Shown here one piece after another: positions 18,904 to 38,931 of a stretch of 64,000 bases of DNA; the stretch's first letter is position 1; every line of letters starts with the position of its first letter. The translations under genes and the position numbers were made by a program. Source of the stretch: Polyangia bacterium (GTDB lineage: Bacteria; Myxococcota_A; Polyangia; JAAYKL01); the NCBI GenBank assembly GCA_046484285.1, contig JAWOBP010000156.1, forward strand, positions 2,518-66,517, given 5' to 3'. The notes under the pieces were generated by a model. The model worked only from the letters and a program-made list of their open reading frames with translations, did not search any database and was not told the origin of the DNA.

Positions 18904-21702
18904 ATGTCCAAGAAATATCTTTTCGTATTTGCTGTTTTCGCGGCTTGCTGGTCGCTGACCGGCTGGGGCTGCGATTCGAGCGGATCGGGGGGCTCCTCGG
19001 GCGACGCCGACACCGATGCCGACGCGGACGCCGATTCCGATGCCGACGCGGACGCCGATTCCGATACGGATGCCGACAGCGATGGCGACACGGACGCCGA
19101 CTCGGACGCCGACAGCGACGCCGACTCGGACGCCGACAGCGACGCCGACTCGGACACGGACTCCGATTCGGACACGGACATGCAGCAGACCGATTTTTGC
19201 AACGAGGACGGCTGGTGCTTCGAGAATCCCACCCCGCACGGCAACACGCTGCGCAGCGTCTGGATCAACTCAGCGAGCGACGTCTGGATGACCAGCGAGA
19301 CCGGGCAGGTGCTGCGCTACGACGGCAGCGACTGGTACGAGTGGCGCTCCGGAGAGTGGGGCGAGGTCTTCACCGCCCTGTGGGGCACCGCTCAGTCGAA
19401 CATGTTCGCGCTGAGCAGCAATCGGCTGATGCACTGGAACGGGAGCGGTTGGTCGGCGGTCTTCACCGACTACGGGCTGACCGCCGTGTTCGGTTTCGGC
19501 AGCGACGACATCTGGGTCACCAGCTACTATGGCGCCCACCACTGGGACGGCACGAGCTGGGAGGAGCACGAGCTGCCGGATTCGTACCTGGCGACCGTGT
19601 TCGGCGTCGCCACGGACGACGTCTGGCTCGGCGGGCAAAACGGCGTTCTCTACCACTGGAACGGCAGCGAGCTCGAGGATCGCTCCCTGACCGACGAGAA
19701 CCACATCTCCGATATCTGGGGCAGCGCCGCGGACGACGTCTACCTCGCATCGGCCGGCTCGAATTCGCTCTACCACTGGGACGGATCCGAGATGGGCCAG
19801 CTCAATCCCGGGCTGACCGCGAGCGGCTGGTCGAAGATCGCGGGCATCGCGGCCGACGACATCTACCTGCTGGGCTCGGGCAACAGGGTGGGTCATTACG
19901 ACGGATCCTTCTGGAGCGACGTCTCGCCCACGGTCCAGCCCTGGTCGCTGGTGGACATCGACGCCGAGTCGGGCGGCGACGTCTGGCTGGTGGGAGGCTA
20001 CGGGATCTTCTGCCAACGGGACGGGGGCGGCTGGGCGTGCAGCGACGCGCTGACCTACGAGAACCTGCAGAGCGTGGGAGGCAGCGCGGCCGACGATCTG
20101 ACGGCCTGCTCCGGCTGGGGCGTGATCGCGGAGCGCGGCTCGGGAGGCTGGAGCACCAATCAGGTCGCGGTTCCGACCTACCTTTCCGACGTCTGGCACA
20201 CGGGCGACGGGGTATTCTGGGGCTATTCCAGCAACACCTACACCGACGAGCTGCTCTTCTATCGCTACGACGGATCGGCGTGGAGCGAGTCGACGGTCGA
20301 AGCGCCGAGCGGGATGCACGCGGTCTGGGCCGGAGACGACGGCAGCGCCTGGGTGGCCGGTCTCGGCGGGCGGGCCTGCCGCTTCGACGGCGCGAGCTGG
20401 AGCTGCGACGCGACCGGGACGACCAAGGATCTGCAAGCCGTCTTCTCGGTGGACGGCGAGGTCTTCGCCGCCGGCCAGGACGGCGCCGTGGCTCACCACG
20501 ACGGAACGGGCTGGTCGCCGCAGGCGAGCAACGTGGACGACGACCTCCGCGCGGTCTGGGGCGCGAGCGCCGACGACGTCTGGGTCGTGGGACACCACGG
20601 CAACGCGGCGCATTTCGACGGCACGGCGTGGACGGCGGTCGATATCTCCAGCTCCTACGATCTCAACGACCTGTGGGGCTTCGCTTCGGACGACGTGTGG
20701 GCCGTGGGCTACAGCGGCGACGCCTTCCACTGGGACGGAGTCGAGTGGACCGAGGTGGAGACGCCGATCTACGACGAGATCTACTCCATCTGGGGCGCGA
20801 CGAGCGACGACGTCTGGGCGGTGTCCGACTGGGGCGGCCTGATCCACTGGGACGGGACGGAATGGAGCGAGGACACCAGCCTCGAGGACTGGGACATGAT
20901 GGCGGTTGCGGGCACCGCCTCCGACGATGTCTGGATCGTCGGCTGGCACGGAACCATGTACCACTACAACGGCTCGGCGTGGAGCGAGGTCAGCAACATG
21001 CTGACCGAGGATTCGCTCTACATGGAAGACATCACCGCCGGCGGAGGCGAGCTGTGGGTCGTCGACTGGGACGACCAGATCTACGCCCGCAAGAACGGCG
21101 CCTGGTCGATCCAGGTGCTGGCCGAGGAGGACGAGGCGCAGGTGACCGGGATCTGGGCCGCAGGACCGGACGACGCCTGGGCCGCGCTTCACCAGGGGAT
21201 GCTGCTGCGCTGGGACGGCGTCGAGTGGCGGCTCTACTCCAGCAGCGGGGCGTCGCGGCTGGACGCGATCCACGGCGCGGGCAGCGACCAGGTCTGGGCG
21301 ATCGGAGACGCCCTGATCGCCTGGGACGGCAGCGCCTGGACGCGGCTGGCCGACGTCTCGACTCAGAGCGAGAACGCCGATTTCGCCGGCATCTACGGGA
21401 CGTCCAGCAGCGAGCTGCGCGCTCTGCTGGAGAACGGAACGCTCTACTCATGGGACGGCTCCTCGTTCGCCCAGCAGTTCACGGTCGACTGGTACAACAT
21501 CTACATGGACGTGACCTGGCTGGGGCTCGACGAGCTGTGGGCCGTGGGCAGCGGCGGCGCTGTGCTGCACTGGGACGGCGTCTCGGTCGAGCTGCCGGCG
21601 AGGCTGACGAGCAACACGCTCTACGGAGTCACTTCGATTCCGGCCGGAGACCTGTTCGCCGTCGGACTGGGCGGCACGATTCTGCACCGCCTGCCGCAGT
21701 GA
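18904..21702 (+). CDS. large repeat lipoprotein: post-lipobox poly(Asp-Ser/Ala/Thr) tether + ~18 tandem Trp-rich beta-propeller-like repeats
   Basis: CAAGGAG RBS; [23 protein letters not shown] lipobox; 60-aa [27 protein letters not shown]... linker; then ~45-aa units with consensus [13 protein letters not shown]...HWDG..W (Ycf48/BNR-like blades). Confidence 0.8.
18997..19185 (+). repeat. imperfect 6/12-bp coding tandem repeat (GAC-RCS-GAY-KCS)n encoding the acidic tether
   Basis: Seen directly: gacgccgacaccgatgccgacgcggacgccgattccgat...gacagcgacgccgactcggacgcc... Confidence 0.7.
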
Positions 21703-21739: not shown

Positions 21740-22669
21740 ATGATCGGCAAGCTGCGAATCGCCCTGCTGGCCGCCGGGCTGGTCGCCGTCTCGGGCTGCG
21801 AGTCGGCCGGCGGCGCCAGCTCCGGCTCCGATGCCGACGCCGACGCGGACGGCGATAGCGACGGCGATAGCGACGGCGACAGCGACGCAGATTCGGACTC
21901 GGACCAGGAGTGCACGGACGGGGCCGCGATCTGCGCTGACGACTACACCGCGCAGACCTGCATCGGCGGGGAGTGGGTCGTCACCGACGAGTGTAACCCC
22001 GAGACCCAGATGTGCGTGGGCGGCGTCTGCGCCGACTGCGTGGACATCGAGTTCTCGATCCAGACCCAGCAGGCCTGCGCGATCTCGATCCTGGACGGTT
22101 ACGAGATGGACGGTGAGGGCTTCATCGAGCTGTACGGCGAGCAGTACCGCGTCTTCGCCATGGATCGCTGGGGCGAGGGGCACATCATCGCCTGGGCCGA
22201 CTCGACGACCACCGGCGAGCTGCTCGAGGCGTTCAACGTGACCGGCTACCTGGGCCAGATGGACGATCCGACCGTGGTCTCGTTCGGCGACAACTACCTG
22301 TGCAACCCGGACGGGCTGGACGGCTACATGCCTGACTACGTGCAGTACCTGGGCGAGGATCTTCCGGCCGCCTACCTGCAGAACGCCGCGCAGATGGCCA
22401 GTGATTTCGACGTGCTGATCTTCTGCGGGTTCCGCATTCCGTGGAGCAACGACTGGGCCGACGAGATTGCCGAGTTCGTCTCCCAGCACGGCAAGGGCTT
22501 CTTGGCGGTGATGGACTACGAGGGCGTGGTGGTGGCCGAGGATTTCACCAACATGAGCGCGATCACCTCCCAGGCCGGGATCGTGTTCGATCCGCTCAAC
22601 CTGGATTGGGCGCCGACCTCGGTCTCGGTTCAGCTGGAGTGCGTGCCCGACGTGCCTCCGGTCGAGTAG
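21740..22669 (+). CDS. hypothetical lipoprotein with acidic (D-S/A/G)n tether
   Basis: ATG at 21740 preceded by AGGAGG; MIGKLRIALLAAGLVAVSGC lipobox; [28 protein letters not shown] linker; Cys-rich globular domain; no family recognised. Confidence 0.6.
   Translation: MIGKLRIALLAAGLVAVSGCESAGGASSGSDADADADGDSDGDSDGDSDADSDSDQECTDGAAICADDYTAQTCIGGEWVVTDECNPETQMCVGGVCADCVDIEFSIQTQQACAISILDGYEMDGEGFIELYGEQYRVFAMDRWGEGHIIAWADSTTTGELLEAFNVTGYLGQMDDPTVVSFGDNYLCNPDGLDGYMPDYVQYLGEDLPAAYLQNAAQMASDFDVLIFCGFRIPWSNDWADEIAEFVSQHGKGFLAVMDYEGVVVAEDFTNMSAITSQAGIVFDPLNLDWAPTSVSVQLECVPDVPPVE
21824..21910 (+). repeat. short coding tandem repeat (GAC/GGC-GAT-AGC)n encoding DADADGDSDGDSDGDSDADSDSD
   Basis: gatgccgacgccgacgcggacggcgatagcgacggcgatagcgacggcgacagcgacgcagattcggactcggac. 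Confidence 0.6.
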
Positions 22670-24174: not shown

Positions 24175-24467
24175 TGGTCAGTTCCTTTGTTTTGAAGACG
24201 GTACGATACTGGACCCTGGATCGGTGCTGTCAATACCGACGTGCAGAGAGGCTCAGCCGAACAGCTCCAGCTGGCGTCGGTTTTCCCCTGTGCCTTGCTT
24301 GCTTCGTCTCCGGCGGCCCGTTCCCGGTCGCAGCCTTTGCTCCAGCTCGCCGCCGGCCGGTCCCAGCGCTGTCATTCCGCCCCGCTGGGGGGAAATGGCC
24401 CATTCCCGGTCGACGATCTGCTCGAATGACACTCCGGCCGTTTTCTCCAATCGGCGCGCGCGGAAGT

Positions 24468-24632
24468 CTAGTGCCTCGTCAACCCGACGATTTCGGGTAC
24501 GGGGCGAGAGATCATCGGCGAGGCCAAGGAACGACGACGAAGGACTGGCGGTGCCAATTCGAGGAGGAGTGACGCAGGGATCGTCGATGAGGGCCGGCCC
24601 GACCCGGCATTGTGGGGTTGACGAGGCGCTAG
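24468..24632. mobile_element. MITE-like element, copy A (IS630/Tc1-type: CTAG target, TA duplication, ~18-bp TIR)
   Basis: 165 bp bounded by CTAG...CTAG; TIR CTAGTGCCTCGTCAACCC / GGGTTGACGAGGCGCTAG; 100 % identical (bar one C) to the inverted copy at 37983..38146; no transposase ORF inside. Confidence 0.6.
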
Positions 24633-25061
24633 GCGGCGAAAGGAGTCGATCTTGTCGCTGTTGCCAATTCGGGCCCGGTCGAGAGCGTCGCGCAGCTCCT
24701 CGATCGTGCGGTCGTAGACGCGAAGCGGGACCGGGTGGGGGTGGCCGTCCTTTCCGCCGTGGGCGAAGGCGAAGCGGGCCGGATCGTCGAAGCGGGACGG
24801 AGCACCGCAGGCGACCTCGGAGGCGACCTCGGCGACCAGGGCCAGCGCCTGCATCGTACGCGGTCCCAGGCCCTCGGTCAGCAGCAGCGATTCGAAGTCG
24901 CGGCCGTCGGTCGCGACGAAGCCGTGCAGGTAGAGCGAGAAGCCGTCCTGGACTGCGGTGTTGTCCACCTTGGCCGTCAAGCGCGAGGCGCGCACCAGCG
25001 CTTCTCAGTCGAGCCCGGTGCGCTCGGCCGTGGCCAGCAGCTCGGCTGGTGTGGGATACAT
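24633..25061 (-). pseudogene. disrupted gene X (unknown family): in-frame TGA plus MITE insertion at 3' end
   Basis: Minus-strand ATG at 25059-61 gives MYPTPAELLATAERTGLD-TGA-EALVRASRLTAKVDNTAVQDGFSLYLHGFVATDGRDFESLL... (high GC3, protein-like); in-frame TGA at about 25005-07; reading frame then runs into MITE copy A and stops at its terminal CTAG. Confidence 0.3.
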
Positions 25062-25110
25062 GATCCACTCGGGGGGTACATGGATCGAGTTGATATCATT
25101 GTTTTTTTTC
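25061..25110. repeat. direct repeat DR-L flanking VapBC cassette
   Basis: TGATCCACTCGGGGGGTACATGGATCGAGTTGATATCATT + T-run; 38/40 identical to DR-R at 25875..25925; contains palindrome GATCCA-N13-TGGATC; begins exactly at the start codon of gene X. Confidence 0.7.
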
Positions 25111-25194: not shown

Positions 25195-25413
25195 ATGAAA
25201 AACATAACCCTCAGCGCCGAAGAAGAGCTCATCGAGCGTTCCCGCCTGCGGGCCCGGCAGGAGAAGACCACCTTGAACGCGGTCTTCCGCAGGTGGCTCG
25301 CCAGGTATGCCCTCGGCGAGGACGCCGCGGCATCCTACCGCGATCTAATGAAGGATCTCTCCTATTCCAGCGCCGGTCGTCGCTTCACGCGCGAAGAGCT
25401 GAACGAGCGATAG
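25195..25413 (+). CDS. antitoxin, ribbon-helix-helix/VapB-like
   Basis: 72 aa, ...TLNAVFRRWLARYALGED... DNA-binding antitoxin-like; sits 9 nt upstream of a PIN toxin; lower GC than surroundings. Confidence 0.65.
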   Translation: MKNITLSAEEELIERSRLRARQEKTTLNAVFRRWLARYALGEDAAASYRDLMKDLSYSSAGRRFTREELNER

Positions 25414-25422
25414 GAATAGACC

Positions 25423-25893
25423 ATGAACGACAGGTTTTTTCTTGATACGAACATTTTGGTCTACACTTTCGACGAGCGAGAGCCCTCGAAGCGCGCCAAG
25501 GCAAGGCAGCTCGTGGAGCGCGCTCTCGAGAGCGGCCGGGGTGTGATCAGCTACCAGGTGCTCCAGGAGTTTCTCAACGTGTCGGTGCGCAAGTTCTCAC
25601 GACCGCTGAGATTCGCCGACCGAATCCGCTATCTCGAGACCGTGCTCTCGCCCCTTTGCGAGGTGTTTCCGTCCGAGGCCTTTTACCGCCGCGGGATCGA
25701 GATCGAACAGCGATACGGCTTCGGGTTCTACGATTCGCTGATAATCGCCGGCGCGCTGGCGGCCGGGGCAGCGACCCTCTGCTCCGAAGACTTTCAGGAT
25801 GGCCAGCGCATCGAAAGCACAACCATCGCCAACCCTTTTTCTGACCCCTCTGATCCGCTCTCTGATCCACTCTCTGATCCACTCGGGGGGTGA
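25423..25893 (+). CDS. vapC: PIN-domain toxin VapC
   Basis: FLDTNILVY (first acidic residue), YDSLIIAGA, LCSEDFQD motifs of PIN/VapC; C-terminal SDPSDPLSDPLSDPLGG tail is encoded by the 12-bp tandem repeats/DR-R (stop codon inside DR-R). Confidence 0.8.
   Translation: MNDRFFLDTNILVYTFDEREPSKRAKARQLVERALESGRGVISYQVLQEFLNVSVRKFSRPLRFADRIRYLETVLSPLCEVFPSEAFYRRGIEIEQRYGFGFYDSLIIAGALAAGAATLCSEDFQDGQRIESTTIANPFSDPSDPLSDPLSDPLGG
25849..25884. repeat. three tandem 12-bp units TCTGATCC(G/A)CTC
   Basis: tctgatccgctc tctgatccactc tctgatccactc immediately 5' of DR-R; inverted partial copy (TGGATCGAG) 10 nt downstream. Confidence 0.6.
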
Positions 25894-25925
25894 ATGGATC
25901 GAGTTGATATCATTTGTTTTTATTG
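25875..25925. repeat. direct repeat DR-R flanking VapBC cassette
   Basis: TGATCCACTCGGGGGGTGAATGGATCGAGTTGATATCATT + T-run; contains stop codons of vapC1 (25891-93, plus strand) and of the eIF-2B-like gene (25910-12, minus strand). Confidence 0.7.
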
Positions 25926-32023: not shown

Positions 32024-33214
32024 ATGCGTACATGGTGGGCTATGACTGCAATCGCCGCGCTGCTCCTGGCAGCTTGCGGCGGAGATCCGCCGCCGTTCGA
32101 CGCAGACGCCGGTACGGACGCGGACAGCGACGCGGATTCCGACGCGGACTCCGACGCGGACTCCGACGCGGACTCCGACGCGGACTCCGACGCGGACTCC
32201 GACGCGGACTCCGACGCGGACTCCGACGCGGATTCCGACGCGGATTCCGACGCGGACTCCGACGCGGACTCCGACGCGGACTCCGACGCGGACGCGGATC
32301 AGTGCACCGGAGAGGAGCAGATCGAGCTGCTGGTCGCCGACGCGGAGATAACCGAGCCGATGGAGACCGCCGAGAGCCAGTCGGGCGAGGGCATCTACTG
32401 CCGCACCACGGTCTACGGCGAAGGTCTGGCCGAGTGGTCGGGAGTGCAGATTCCCTGCCAGGGTGACTGGTACGTGCTGGGCCGCGTCTTCGGACAGGCG
32501 CCGGTCGACTCGATGTACCTGACGGTCGAGGATTACGACGAGGTGGTCTGGGATTTCAGCCAGTGCGAGGGGACCCAGTACTGGGACTGGGACTTCGCCT
32601 CCTCCGGGCCGGACGTCGAGGAGTGCTCGGTCGGCGAGATCGAGGATCCGGTGTCGTTCTTCCTGGTGCCCGGGCCGATCGGCGTCGCTCTTCGCGGGCG
32701 CGAGATACCGTCCGAACAGGGATACTCGCCATCGGTGGCCCGCCTCTACCTGGTCACCGATCCCGAGATCGATCCGGACACGATCGGGCTGGGCCTGCTG
32801 GACATCACCGGCCCCGGCGCTGTTCCCGACAACCTGGTCGACATCTACCACCAGGTGGGCGACGTCGGCACGCCGCTCGACACGACGCTGGAGGCCTGGA
32901 TCCGCTGGTCCGGCTCGGTGAGCCCGGACAACGAGGAGGGCTGCGGGCCCTATCCCCCGGACGTGTTCACCGATGCGGTGGCTCTGATTCGCAGGGGCAC
33001 CTGCCAGTTCTCCGACAAGGTCGCCAATGCCGAAGCGGCCGGCGCGGTGGGAGCAGTCGTGCTCAACAATCAGGGCAACGAGATAGTCTACATGACGGGA
33101 GATCCCAACGGTATTCCGGCCACCTTCGTCGGCCAGGACGACGGGCAGGCGATCGTCGACTGGATCCTGGATCACCCCGGCCAGGCCACCGTCGCGATCC
33201 ACCCCATGCCCTGA
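32024..33214 (+). CDS. lipoprotein with (Asp-Ala-Asp-Ser)17 tether and C-terminal PA (protease-associated) domain
   Basis: Start [20 protein letters not shown] (aa 17 of ORF); 68-aa perfect DADS repeat; C-terminal [35 protein letters not shown]...[14 protein letters not shown] is a PA-domain signature. Confidence 0.7.
32117..32300 (+). repeat. near-perfect 12-bp tandem repeat (GCGGAYTCCGAC)~15 encoding (ADSD)n
   Basis: Seen directly: gcggactccgac repeated head-to-tail with only T/C wobble differences; likely prone to slipped-strand length change. Confidence 0.8.
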
Positions 33215-35225: not shown

Positions 35226-37286
35226 ATGGGTCCCTACGTCATGACCGCATGCATCGCGGTGGCTCTCGCCGTCTTCGGCTGGTCGGCGCACCGGCGCTGG
35301 CTGCTGATGCGCGCCGCCGCCGCCGAGAACCGCTTCGATCGCCTCGGCACGCGCCTGGGCCGCATGATCTGGTTCGCGCTGATGCAGCGCAAGCTGCCCA
35401 AGTACCCGGTGATGGGGCTGATCCACATGGCCATCTTCTGGGGCTTTCTGGTGCTGCTGATCAACACGGTGATCCTGTGGGGCCGCGGGTTCGATGAACA
35501 TTTCGCCCTGTGGATCTTCGGCGACAACTGGCTGGGTGACCTGTACCGCTTTCTCAAGGACATCTTCGCGGTCGCGGTGCTCGTAGCCGCCGGGCTGGCG
35601 TTGCTCAATCGCGTGATCCTGAGGCCGTCGCGGATGACCGCCTCGTTCGAGGCGGCGCTGATCCTGCTGATCATCGTGGTGATGATGATAGGCGATCTGG
35701 CCTACTGGGGCTGGCAGCTGTCCAGCGAGGGGATGAGCGGCTTCCACGTCTCCGAGCCGTTCGTCTCGCTGGTTGCCGCGGGCTTTTCTCGGATGGAACC
35801 CGCCTGGGTCGAGATCCTGGGCACGATCGGCTACTGGGCGCACGCGGTGCTGGTGTTGATCTTTCTCAACATCCTGCCTTACGGCAAGCACTTCCACGTT
35901 GTCACCTCTCTGCCCAACGTGTTTTTCTCCAACCTCGAGGCGCCGGGCAAGCTGCCCCGCGACGAGAACATCGAGAAAGTGCTCAACGAGGAGGACGAGG
36001 AAGAGGAGGACGAGGAAGAGGAGCCCGTCTTCGGCGTCGACGAGGTCCAGCACTTCAGCTGGAAGGACGTGCTGGACATGTACTCCTGCACCGAGTGCGG
36101 GCGCTGCACGGACAACTGCCCGGCCGCCGAGAGCGGCAAGCCGCTGCAGCCCAAGCAGTTCCTCACCGCGGTGCGCGATCACCTCTACTCCCGGCAGCGG
36201 GAGATGATCTCCGGCAAGATCGAGAGCCGCCCGCTGGTGCCGGACGTGATCGATCCCGAGGTGGTCTGGAGCTGCACCACCTGCCGCGCCTGTGAGGAGG
36301 AGTGCCCGCTGCTGATCACCTACGTGGACAAGCTGGTCCGCATGCGGCGCGACCTGGTCGAGGGACGCGGCGAGCCGCCGGCCGAGCTGGCCACGGCTCT
36401 GCGCGGAATTGAGACCAACGCCAACCCGTGGAACATCTCGCCGATGGATCGCGACGACTGGAGCGAGGGGCTCGAGGTCCCCCAATTCGATTCCGACAGC
36501 TGCGAGTACCTGCTGTTCGTCGGCTGCGCGGCGAGCTTCGACGATCGGGCGCGCAAGATCGCTCGCGCGCTGGTCTCGCTGCTGGACGCCGCCGGCGTCA
36601 GCTACGGCTACCTGGGAGCCGAGGAGCCGTGCTGCGGCGACATCGCGCGCCGCGGCGGCTCGGAGGCCAACTTCCGGATGATGGCCGAGATGACCGTCGA
36701 GACGCTCAACGAGCTGGGCGTCGAGAAGATCATCACGCCCTGCCCGCACGGCTACAACACGCTCAAGCACGAGTACCCCGAGCTGGGCGGCGAGTGGGAG
36801 GTGCTGCACCACAGCGAGCTTTTGGCCAAGCTGCTCGACGAGGGCAAGCTGCGTCCCGCCCAGCGGGTCGAGCAGCGGATGGTCTTTCACGACGCCTGCT
36901 ACCTGGGGCGCTACAACGAGATGTACGACGCGCCGCGCCGCATCCTGGAAGCGGTTCCCGGCCTGGAGCTGGTCGAGATCGACGCCGGCCGCCAGCGAGC
37001 CATGTGCTGCGGCGCGGGAGGAGCGCGCTACTTCATGGAGGAGGCCCCGGACCAGCGGGTCAACAGCAGGCGCCTCGACCAGCTGCTCGAGCCAAAGCCG
37101 AAATCTATCGCCTCGGCCTGCCCGTTTTGCATGACCATGCTCTCCGACGGCCTCAAGGAGCGCGACCTCTACGACAGCACCGGCCAGCTCGACGTGGCCG
37201 AGATTTTGGCGATCTCCTGCGGAAAGGGAGACCGCAAGCTGCTCAGGGAGCAAGGCGACTCCGCCGAGACCGGAGCGGAGGGCTGA
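35226..37286 (+). CDS. membrane-anchored (Fe-S)-binding protein: NarI/DsrM-like N-terminal helices fused to two 4Fe-4S ferredoxin motifs and two CCG (HdrD/GlpC-like) domains
   Basis: N-terminal TM helices; CTECGRCTDNCP and CTTCRACEEECP ferredoxin motifs; GCAASFDD...PCCG and CPFC/MCCGAGG cysteine-rich CCG domains. Confidence 0.7.
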   Translation: MGPYVMTACIAVALAVFGWSAHRRWLLMRAAAAENRFDRLGTRLGRMIWFALMQRKLPKYPVMGLIHMAIFWGFLVLLINTVILWGRGFDEHFALWIFGDNWLGDLYRFLKDIFAVAVLVAAGLALLNRVILRPSRMTASFEAALILLIIVVMMIGDLAYWGWQLSSEGMSGFHVSEPFVSLVAAGFSRMEPAWVEILGTIGYWAHAVLVLIFLNILPYGKHFHVVTSLPNVFFSNLEAPGKLPRDENIEKVLNEEDEEEEDEEEEPVFGVDEVQHFSWKDVLDMYSCTECGRCTDNCPAAESGKPLQPKQFLTAVRDHLYSRQREMISGKIESRPLVPDVIDPEVVWSCTTCRACEEECPLLITYVDKLVRMRRDLVEGRGEPPAELATALRGIETNANPWNISPMDRDDWSEGLEVPQFDSDSCEYLLFVGCAASFDDRARKIARALVSLLDAAGVSYGYLGAEEPCCGDIARRGGSEANFRMMAEMTVETLNELGVEKIITPCPHGYNTLKHEYPELGGEWEVLHHSELLAKLLDEGKLRPAQRVEQRMVFHDACYLGRYNEMYDAPRRILEAVPGLELVEIDAGRQRAMCCGAGGARYFMEEAPDQRVNSRRLDQLLEPKPKSIASACPFCMTMLSDGLKERDLYDSTGQLDVAEILAISCGKGDRKLLREQGDSAETGAEG

Positions 37287-37381
37287 GGTCTCGCCTTCGT
37301 CCTGGACAGTCGGGGGATCGACATCACACCACCACGCTGAGCAGGCGCGATACCGATCGTCGCTTGTCTGTTTGGGGCTCG

Positions 37382-37666
37382 CTACTCCGGAATCTCGTCC
37401 GCCTCCACGTACTTGGCCAGGATGTCCGCGGCCTGCACGAGGCGGTGGGGCTTGCCGTCGATTCTTATCTCCTCTCCGGAGAACTTTTTGTAGATCACCC
37501 GATCGCCGATCTCGATCTCGTCGCTGGCGTCCGCGGCCAGCGCCACCACCTTGCCTTCGTCGGGACGCTGCTTGGCGTTTTCGGGCAGGATGATCCCACC
37601 GCTGGTCGTCTCTTCTGGTTCGAATTGTTCGAGTAGCACGTAATCACCCAGTGGTTGCAGCTTCAT
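37382..37666 (-). CDS. groES: co-chaperonin GroES (no groEL downstream)
   Basis: MKLQPLGDYVLLEQFEPEETTSGGIILPENAKQRPDEGKVVALA... 94 aa; AGGAGG RBS; start at aa 113 of ORF 37382..38002. Confidence 0.85.
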   Translation of the reverse strand: MKLQPLGDYVLLEQFEPEETTSGGIILPENAKQRPDEGKVVALAADASDEIEIGDRVIYKKFSGEEIRIDGKPHRLVQAADILAKYVEADEIPE

Positions 37667-37686
37667 CGCCTCCTCCTTCGCGGTGC

Positions 37687-37932
37687 TCACGCCGCGCTTT
37701 GTTCGGGCGTCAGGTCGAGCAGCTCGTCGATCTTGGCCCGGTCGAAACCCACGACGTAGCGCCCCTCTATGTCTATTTGGGGCACGCCGGTCTGTCCGGT
37801 CCTGGCCATCAGGCTGCGCGCCGCGGCCGGGTCCTTTGAGACGTCGACCTCGATGAACCGCACGCGCCGCTTGCGCAGGTAGCTCTTGACCCTGTTGCAC
37901 CAGGGGCATCTCTCGCCCACGTAGACGACCAC
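37687..37932 (-). CDS. glutaredoxin-like protein (CPWC active site)
   Basis: MVVYVGERCPWCNRVKSYLRKRRVRFIEVDVSKD...GVPQIDIEGRYVVGF: thioredoxin-fold Grx/NrdH-like; GTG start. Confidence 0.7.
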   Translation of the reverse strand: MVVYVGERCPWCNRVKSYLRKRRVRFIEVDVSKDPAAARSLMARTGQTGVPQIDIEGRYVVGFDRAKIDELLDLTPEQSAA

Positions 37933-37982
37933 GCGCTTGGCGCGCTTGCCCTCCCCGGAGGGCTGCGGAGTCGCCGAGGTCT

Positions 37983-38146
37983 CTAGCCCTCGTCAACCCC
38001 ACAATGCCGGGTCGGGCCGGCCCTCATCGACGATCCCTGCGTCACTCCTCCTCGAATTGGCACCGCCAGTCCTTCGTCGTCGTTCCTTGGCCTCGCCGAT
38101 GATCTCTCGCCCCGTACCCGAAATCGTCGGGTTGACGAGGCACTAG
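37983..38146. mobile_element. MITE-like element, copy B (inverted relative to copy A)
   Basis: 164 bp CTAG...CTAG, reverse complement identical to 24468..24632; lies between glutaredoxin-like gene and the vapB2 promoter. Confidence 0.6.
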
Positions 38147-38204
38147 CTTTTCCGGCCGCACGAACCCCCATTTTTCGTTCCAAAGCCGTCGCGTCGGATG
38201 GCCT

Positions 38205-38241
38205 TTGACATTACGCAAAGAGGTCATTATTATCATAATAA
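38205..38241 (+). promoter_or_regulatory. sigma70-like promoter TTGACA-17-TATTAT with overlapping operator palindrome TTATTATcATAATAA
   Basis: TTGACA 38205-10, TATTAT 38228-33, perfect 7-bp-arm palindrome 38227-41; AGGAG RBS 38253-57; AT-rich island in 70 % GC DNA. Confidence 0.55.
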
Positions 38242-38264
38242 CCAATACGAACAGGAGCGTTTCG

Positions 38265-38540
38265 ATGCCCACTATCGAGATTCCAGCCGCAGAAGCCAAA
38301 AGGCGCCTGGCCGACTACCTTAGCCGCAGTTCCCACGGTCAGTGCCGCGTGGTGGTCACCCGCCGGGGCAGACCGCTGGCCGCGATCGTCAGCATCGAGG
38401 ACTTGCAGGATCTCGAGCAGCTCGAAAAGCGCCGGGGGCTGGCCTCGGTGGCGGGCAAGTGGAGAGGCTTCGCCGAGATAGCCGCTGATATCGAAGCGGC
38501 CAGGAGCTCCGGCGGCGAAGGTCGCGATGTATCTCTTTGA
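38265..38540 (+). CDS. Phd/YefM-family antitoxin
   Basis: MPTIEIPAAEAKRRLADYLSRSSHGQCRVVVTRRGRPLAAIVSIEDLQDLE = Phd/YefM N-terminal fold; 14-nt overlap with downstream PIN gene. Confidence 0.75.
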   Translation: MPTIEIPAAEAKRRLADYLSRSSHGQCRVVVTRRGRPLAAIVSIEDLQDLEQLEKRRGLASVAGKWRGFAEIAADIEAARSSGGEGRDVSL

Positions 38541-38931
38541 CACCGACGTGCTGACCACCGTGCTCAAGCCGCGTCCTCCCCGGCGCCTGCTCGAGAGGCT
38601 GTCGGATGTTCCGGCCTCTCGGCAGTTCACCAGCACCGTCACCATCAGCGAGATAGTCTACGGCGCGCACAAGAGCGACAGGACCGACCACCATATCCGC
38701 AACCTCGAGCAGGTGCTGCTGCCCGCGGTCAACGTGTTGGATTTCGACGCCGAGGCTGCGTACCTGGCCGGTGCGATTCGAGCCCGGCTCGAAGCGCGCG
38801 GCCTGCCCCTGTCGTTCGCCGACATCCAGATCGCGGCGATCGCCCGCGCCAACGAGCTGACCCTGATCACCGGCAACGAGCGGAACTTTCGCCGGATCGG
38901 GGATCTGCGCGTGGAAAGCTGGCTGGCCTGA
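38527..38931 (+). CDS. vapC: PIN-domain toxin VapC
   Basis: MYLFDTDVLTTVLKPRPP...TISEIVYGA...ADIQIAAIARANELTLITGNERNF PIN motifs. Confidence 0.8.
   Translation: MYLFDTDVLTTVLKPRPPRRLLERLSDVPASRQFTSTVTISEIVYGAHKSDRTDHHIRNLEQVLLPAVNVLDFDAEAAYLAGAIRARLEARGLPLSFADIQIAAIARANELTLITGNERNFRRIGDLRVESWLA

Follow-up and report, generated by a model that had tools for sequence, protein, structure and literature searches.

Copies A and B of a short repeat in the window, the whole 64,000-nucleotide stretch of Polyangia DNA that we analysed, represent a genuine, recently active, CTAG-targeting MITE family of Polyangia that was apparently undescribed before. Each copy is very probably a non-coding passenger of 157-159 bp, whose TIRs are bound by a transposase encoded elsewhere and which is inserted at CTAG. 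The two copies and their parts are as follows, with positions counted in the window.

24468..24632, + strand: MITE copy A, 165 nt including both CTAGs, a net insertion of 161 nt
24468..24485: left TIR of copy A, CTAGTGCCTCGTCAACCC; its CTAG (24468-24471) is target or duplication
24481..24498: sub-terminal local hairpin in the left arm of copy A, ACCCGA-CGATT-TCGGGT
~24602-24618: ACCC...GGGT hairpin in the right arm of copy A, the counterpart of the left-arm one
24615..24632: right TIR of copy A, GGGTTGACGAGGCGCTAG; its CTAG (24629-24632) is target or duplication
37983..38146, - strand: MITE copy B, 164 nt, inverted relative to copy A
38129..38146: left TIR of copy B, seen as the reverse complement on the + strand
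37983..37999: right TIR of copy B, which carries a 1-nt deletion, CTAGCCCTCGTCAACCC

Copies A and B are separated by 13.4 kb and match perfectly over 159 nt (24468-24626 vs 37988-38146). The sole difference between them is one C absent from the right end of copy B (GACGAGGCGCTAG in A, GACGAGGGCTAG in B), in agreement with an earlier note on this DNA that had described two near-identical copies in inverted orientation. CTAG is present at both termini of copy A and of copy B, and the TIRs of copy A are complementary at 17 of 18 positions, with an imperfect extension to 31 nt at 84%, as expected from the CTAG ends and imperfect 18-nt TIRs given in that note. When up to 3 mismatches were allowed, the TIR 18-mer occurred 3 times in the window, compared with 0.05 expected occurrences. 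The flanks of A and B are unrelated, and the similarity ends exactly at the CTAGs.

As single-stranded DNA, the element was predicted to form a long hairpin (-45 kcal/mol, z = -5.3 vs shuffles), so the self-complementary interior noticed before was recovered by the secondary-structure check. Six-frame translation of the element was searched against 5.8 billion proteins and matched only read-through of a host gene, P0121, confirming that the element has no ORF of its own. In a comparison of the element with Rfam, no family reached its gathering threshold, and the best hit was a plant miRNA model with 27.9 bits against a threshold of 79. Promoter- or terminator-like sites were not found inside the element.

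Copy A provides an insertion site that can be compared with its empty counterpart. Its target, called gene X in the earlier note, is as follows.

24253..25061, - strand: DUF763 pseudogene (Pfam PF05559, E = 2e-33), interrupted by copy A

The insertion lies in DUF763 between codons CTA and GAC (RRL/D), and the minus-strand ORF, which encodes the C-terminal portion of DUF763, crosses the whole element and stops at the TAG of the far CTAG (24468-24470). Excision of 161 nt, by which one CTAG remains in place, restored the DUF763 frame and gave a gapless alignment to 11 homologues, which spans the invariant RL of the RRL/D junction to the conserved C-terminal QLxLF; excision of all 165 nt resulted in the wrong frame. 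The gene order NUDIX-IF2B-DUF763-OmpA was found without the element in contig CAZHCG010000074.1 (L084) of the sister genome described below and in two Logan contigs (L085 and L086), with 88-94% identity. The empty site reads CGCCGCCTGGAC in all three contigs and the window reads CGCCGC-CTAG[...]CTAG-AC, which makes the window longer by exactly 161 nt at the orthologous site. At the target position, CTAG of the window corresponds to CTGG of the sister. Because the orthologous site is empty in the sister, the element was inserted after the split of the two lineages. Recent movement, as claimed earlier, is thus borne out by the empty site, the restored frame and the dispersed copies and derivatives.

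The proposal that copy A truncates gene X was only partly upheld. The terminal CTA of the element does supply the stop codon; the gene, however, was not a working one, since DUF763 is also broken in the relative. The window pseudogene carries an in-frame stop (GLD*EAL), a 4-codon duplication and deletions of 368 and 328 bp compared with the relative, and the sister DUF763 (L084 11389-12552) consists of two separate ORFs, of 185 and 196 aa. The gene is in decay in both genomes, and copy A, which landed in a pseudogene already decaying, is probably neutral. An inversion between copies A and B was considered and rejected because both DUF763 halves still flank copy A. In the region of copy B, no orthologous groES-grx-vapBC2 segment was found in the sister genome.

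An exact-match TIR scan of 185,579 genomes, one per species, identified the TIR in 18 loci, 12 of which are in the MAG GCA_964530995.1 (CAZHCG01, 'uncultured Myxococcales') and one in another Myxococcota MAG. Because orthologous genes of GCA_964530995.1 and the window share 91-92% DNA identity, we regard this MAG as a sister species. It contains at least 5 full 165-nt copies that are 88-91% identical to the window copies, five of which are mutually 90-99% identical, three copies of 68-72 bp at 3 unrelated loci, and 4 solo ends, none of them at the sites occupied in the window. The 68-72-bp form derives from the full element by a deletion that runs between two 9-nt CCCTCATCG repeats and retains the ends; its dispersal shows that the terminal 20-48 nt of each arm suffice for movement. 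The same TIR 18-mer terminates 10 further elements in relatives, and the TIR is perfect in the sister-genome copies. The element interior is well conserved, with a between-genome divergence similar to that of the host orthologous DNA. The copy count in relatives, which the earlier note had wished to see established, therefore comprises full copies, deletion derivatives and solo ends in the sister genome, showing that the element is multicopy and dispersed. The near-identity of copies A and B probably reflects recent activity in the lineage. Within the window itself, no 3rd or 4th TIR was found, and nhmmer with a profile of 7 full copies detected no additional diverged copy.

A further copy interrupts the Rpn-family (PF04754) gene P0121 (MFO8071122.1, on a 4.9-kb contig) at CTAG after residue 173; its reading frame is the one used in gene X (LVPRQPHN...GLTRH*). 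MFO8071122 falls within the same accession series as the window proteins MFO8073011-27, suggesting that P0121 and the window come from one MAG. In sequence, the P0121 copy is of the type found in the sister genome, a hint that one genome may hold two element subfamilies.

More distant elements share the ends and not the interior. In the Myxococcota MAG Prado146, a 190-bp element (L007 1596-1785) has the CTAG-bounded TIR common to the family and an unrelated interior, and in a Methanosarcinaceae MAG, an 88-bp CTAG-bounded element (L013 4291-4378), also with an unrelated interior, has the ends CTAGTGCCTCGTCAAC and CTAGTGTCGCGTCAAC. These two elements share the non-palindromic 14-16-nt TIR and are without convincing local hairpins. 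The probability of finding the inverted partner of L013 by chance was estimated as ~1% across all inspected loci, and recognition of the same 16-18-nt end type may extend well beyond Polyangia, as far as an archaeon. The other out-of-clade TIR matches, in Pelotomaculum, Alpinimonas, OM182, Chloroflexota and Schaalia, look like chance, and only L013 has an inverted partner. Among JGI metagenome contigs, the exact TIR pattern gave 25 matches, none of which was a recognisable full or short family copy; one locus (L043), possibly a solo end, matches 23 nt of the right TIR, four loci (L034, L036, L037 and L040) have short hairpins starting with the TIR, and the remaining matches look like chance. 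The 29 TIR matches in viral contigs were all chance-like, none with a credible inverted partner, and BLAST of the element against plasmids gave no match.

We next considered the target sequence. CTAG occurs 14 times in the 64-kb window as compared with ~183 occurrences expected from base composition, a depletion of ~13-fold, and 4 of the 14 are element ends. CTAG is present on both sides of 10 of the 12 complete elements, and no longer direct repeat was found outside. Every informative site has the form CTAG...CTAG, which is readable as C-TA-[G...C]-TA-G or as CTAG-[TG...CA]-CTAG, and the net gain at the filled site is the element length minus 4. Judged from these flanks, a TA duplication of the IS630 type and a 4-nt CTAG duplication of the IS5 type would fit equally well. 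Variants were found at a few ends. Specifically, the solo end at position 3854 of L005 is preceded by CTAA, a YTAR variant, and two near-identical copies at unrelated loci (L001 6374-6377 and L003 4357-4360) have CTGC instead of CTAG at the right end. The CTGC ends common to these two copies are not predicted by simple target duplication, and post-insertion mutation would be needed twice.

Several copies sit exactly at gene ends. The terminal TAG/CTA of the element is the stop codon of the neighbouring gene at four sites (L003 4196-4199, L016 4217-4220, L015 7097-7100 and L002 7753-7756), and in L017 (2701-2705) a copy lies 3 nt beyond a tRNA gene. Because CTAG contains TAG, the stop codon is regenerated when the element is inserted between C and TAG, and this regeneration plausibly explains the survival of copies located exactly at gene ends.

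On the basis of these features, we propose the following mechanism. The 18-nt TIRs, with their imperfect extension to ~31 nt, would be bound by a transposase whose gene lies elsewhere in the genome, presumably a DDE enzyme that mobilises the element in trans. This enzyme would insert the element at the rare CTAG and leave CTAG on both sides, either by duplicating the central TA or by duplicating all four bases. Copy B landed in the short divergent stretch that separates grx-groES from vapB2. The leading candidate for the enzyme is an IS630/Tc1-like one that duplicates TA. For IS630-family elements, the inverted repeats suffice in cis for insertion into and duplication of TA, ISY100 needing only its inverted repeats (PMC2170065), and IS630 itself prefers CTAG (PMC2170065, citing Tenzen & Ohtsubo 1991).

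A search for the partner in the window and the fetched loci (733 kb) revealed no credible inverted TIR pair 0.25-6 kb apart that could delimit a transposase gene. The two weak inverted TIR pairs that did occur, in L008 and L018, have ordinary genes between them and were dismissed as chance, and the solo end in L011, located 395 bp from the contig end, has no transposase-like ORF beside it. The IS630 transposase with matching TIRs, for which a search had been suggested, was accordingly not encountered in these 733 kb, nor did the genome, metagenome, viral and plasmid scans yield anything beyond MITEs, solo ends and chance matches. Of the earlier classification as an IS630/Tc1-type MITE inserted at CTAG, the MITE-like insertion at CTAG stands; the IS630 label is unproven, given that no partner transposase was found and that TA and CTAG duplications are indistinguishable here.

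It is possible, though on present evidence rather doubtful, that the same MITE is moved by a partner of the IS5 group or an IS701-like enzyme that duplicates YTAR/CTAG, in which case the true ends would be 5'-TG...CA-3'. TG...CA termini occur in many DDE elements, and with CTAG taken as the duplication, the element does start with TG and finish with CA. The CTAG...CTAG flanks and the 161-nt net gain fit a 4-nt duplication equally, and the CTAA before the L005 solo end is a variant that such an enzyme would use. However, no complete element with a non-CTAG repeat on both sides was present among the available sites, and the CTGC ends of L001 and L003 would require two changes under the 4-nt model vs one under the TA model. 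In addition, the TIR TGCCTCGTCAACCC is unlike the GGAAGGT-type ends of MITEPsy1 (GGAAGGTCTGAAAAAGCC; PMC3189936).

Less probable, and in our view unlikely, is a REPIN- or PATE-like origin, in which a Y1/HUH enzyme (RAYT or IS200/IS605 TnpA) moves a pair of inverted hairpin ends in single-stranded form. Insertion would take place 3' of a host CTAG; the left CTAG would then be the host target and the right tetranucleotide the element's own, with no true duplication. The element resembles REPINs with RAYT in being an inverted doublet with a long hairpin, in its common solo units, in compensatory hairpin change and in its location at gene ends. Each arm has an ACCC-loop-GGGT hairpin in which both strands of the stem have changed with pairing retained: GA...TC in the window corresponds to TC...GA in the sister, and in the right arm of L017, C-G is replaced by A-T and one mismatch is repaired. 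Local hairpins kept through such two-sided change are unexpected for plain DDE binding sites. Solo ends are common, like REP singlets; the whole element is a strong hairpin by the z-score given above; the CTGC right end occurs in two copies at different loci, as if the tetranucleotide travels with the element; and all tetranucleotide variants are at R-type ends. If true, this origin would account for the shared CTGC ends, for the preservation of the local hairpins and for the abundance of solo ends.

The structure of the ends argues against it. Between CTAG and the local hairpin, each end has 14 nt that are the exact reverse complement of those at the other end, hence a true TIR, and it is this 14-nt TIR, not the hairpins, that is common to L007 and L013. 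REPs start with GT[AG]G directly at the palindrome and have tens to hundreds of extragenic copies. By contrast, the ends of the present element consist of CTAG, 9-10 non-palindromic nt and then the ACCC...GGGT hairpin, with no GT[AG]G head on the palindrome, and the element differs from REPINs in its 14-nt non-palindromic TIR outside the hairpins, its CTAG ends, its apparently low copy number and one insertion inside coding sequence. Furthermore, the right-end asymmetry rests on 3 non-independent ends, and no Y1 gene, including RAYT, was seen in the window and selected loci. We retain the MITE moved by a transposase acting at its TIRs as the preferred reading.

The earlier note also drew attention to toxin-antitoxin genes beside both copies. 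The neighbouring features are as follows.

25195..25893, + strand: vapB1-vapC1 (PIN) module, 560 bp from copy A, lineage-specific
25062-25110 and 25876-25922: direct repeats flanking the vapB1-vapC1 module
37382-37666: groES, which follows grx
37687..37932, - strand: glutaredoxin gene grx, with its start codon 50 nt from the other end of copy B
38205-38233, + strand: strong promoter-like site of vapB2 (TTGACA, 17 nt, TATTAT)
38265-38540, + strand: vapB2, Phd/YefM-type antitoxin
38527-38931, + strand: vapC2, PIN toxin

Pfam confirmed VapB/VapC modules beside both copies, with VapC1 and VapC2 as PIN-domain proteins. Copy B ends 58 nt before the vapB2 promoter-like site, close to the ~60 bp estimated before, and from this arrangement it is possible that copy B affects transcription of its neighbours vapB2 and grx. 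The co-localisation with VapBC is nevertheless restricted to the window: the 1.5 kb around each of 13 related sites contained 111 TA-sized ORFs in total, none of them with a match to a PIN or antitoxin family, and tblastn of the four window TA proteins against the same 13 sites gave no match, so the modules beside the two copies stand and a family-wide link (0/13 sites) does not. The third PIN remnant said to lie 4.6 kb away was not found by tblastn with both VapC proteins or by Pfam scans of the neighbouring ORFs.

We accordingly consider it very improbable that the repeat is a cis-regulatory or RNA element tied to VapBC, such as a shared operator, a terminator or an sRNA. The idea draws on both window copies being within 0.6 kb of a VapBC module, on the short distance of copy B from the vapB2 promoter-like site, and on the conserved interior of the element. 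Against these stand the 13 related sites without PIN or antitoxin neighbours, the absence of an internal promoter- or terminator-like site and of an Rfam match, and the fact that, taken in its own orientation, one copy precedes its TA module and the other follows it. Moreover, a pseudogene fragment and a repeat separate copy A from vapB1, and elsewhere the element interrupts an Rpn gene, adjoins tRNA genes or coincides with the stop codon of an unrelated gene. Even harder to credit is an origin of copies A and B by segmental duplication or gene conversion, which their near-perfect identity at 13.4 kb might suggest, as the similarity stops at the CTAGs with unrelated flanks, more than 10 other unrelated loci bear the identically bounded unit, and an empty orthologous site exists.

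The comparison with the sister genome offers another view of the proximity of MITE and VapBC. Copy A and vapBC1 are both absent from the sister DUF763 locus; they entered the same decaying stretch of DUF763 pseudogene and intergenic DNA as independent, lineage-specific insertions. Copy B lies with vapBC2, grx and groES in 37273-38911, between two synteny blocks for which the sister has separate contigs. The window aligns with sister contig 116 up to 37272 and with sister contig 2 from 38912 onwards, 20 nt short of the vapC2 stop. The segment 37273-38911 marks a rearrangement breakpoint, and all DNA in it is lineage-specific. The simplest reading is that both kinds of insertion gather in the few dispensable stretches of a gene-dense genome, and the MITE-VapBC proximity is most likely coincidental.

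Some additional observations were made on the vapBC1 module. Its insertion comprises ~765 bp and is flanked by a target duplication of ~46-50 bp, with 37/39 identical positions in the core. The target sequence occurs once in the sister, at the IF-2B stop codon (L084 11280-11332), and the 368-bp DUF763 deletion adjoins the outer vapBC1 repeat. This target duplication is unusually long for an insertion, suggesting Campbell-type or site-specific integration. The vapC1 gene extends ~16 codons beyond the ends of its homologues, via three tandem 12-mers (ctctgatccRct) into the duplicated target. Long runs with a 12-nt period are present elsewhere in the window (18973-19206, 21782-21925 and 32075-32338), where they encode Asp/Ser-rich linkers (DSDADSD...) close to the N-terminus of three proteins predicted to be secreted or lipoproteins; loci of the sister genome have comparable runs. 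Two short-read Logan contigs of the same organism (L019 and L020, SRR31818008) end inside the vapBC1 flanking repeat and inside MITE B, so that each of these repeats disrupts assembly.

The element can be placed among known small repeats. IS630-family-derived bacterial MITEs are known as RUP in Streptococcus pneumoniae and Nezha in cyanobacteria; they are likewise small, non-coding and bounded by TIRs, of ~20-30 nt in their case, and they insert at TA. The present element differs from them in its Polyangia host and its sequence, and no IS630 transposase with these TIRs was found. Correia elements (CREE/NEMIS), which are confined to Neisseria and unrelated in sequence to the Polyangia MITE, are hairpin MITEs of 100-160 bp with TA duplication that insert within genes or close to them. 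Besides the long form, they have a short one with an internal deletion; promoter, IHF-site and RNase III effects have been documented for them, and they are not known to have a transposase partner. A further parallel is MITEPsy1/ISPsy2 of Pseudomonas syringae (IS5 family), a 100-nt MITE with 18-nt TIRs that leaves CTAG or YTAA on both sides (PMC3189936). It is like the present element in its 18-nt TIRs and CTAG flanks; the TIR sequences, however, are unrelated, and the partner IS of MITEPsy1 is known, while none was found here. In the full-text literature searched, no description of a myxobacterial or Methanosarcina MITE of this type was found.

The existence of this MITE family, a common sort of selfish DNA, leaves the current understanding of transposition and toxin-antitoxin biology unchanged. 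It is of practical relevance for annotation and assembly, as the element breaks short-read contigs (L019, L020) and extends or truncates ORF calls (DUF763, P0121). As inverted, near-identical sequences 13.4 kb apart, copies A and B are also a potential substrate for inversion. Finally, the strict use of CTAG in a genome depleted of CTAG, often on TAG stop codons, indicates that target choice can make insertions harmless.
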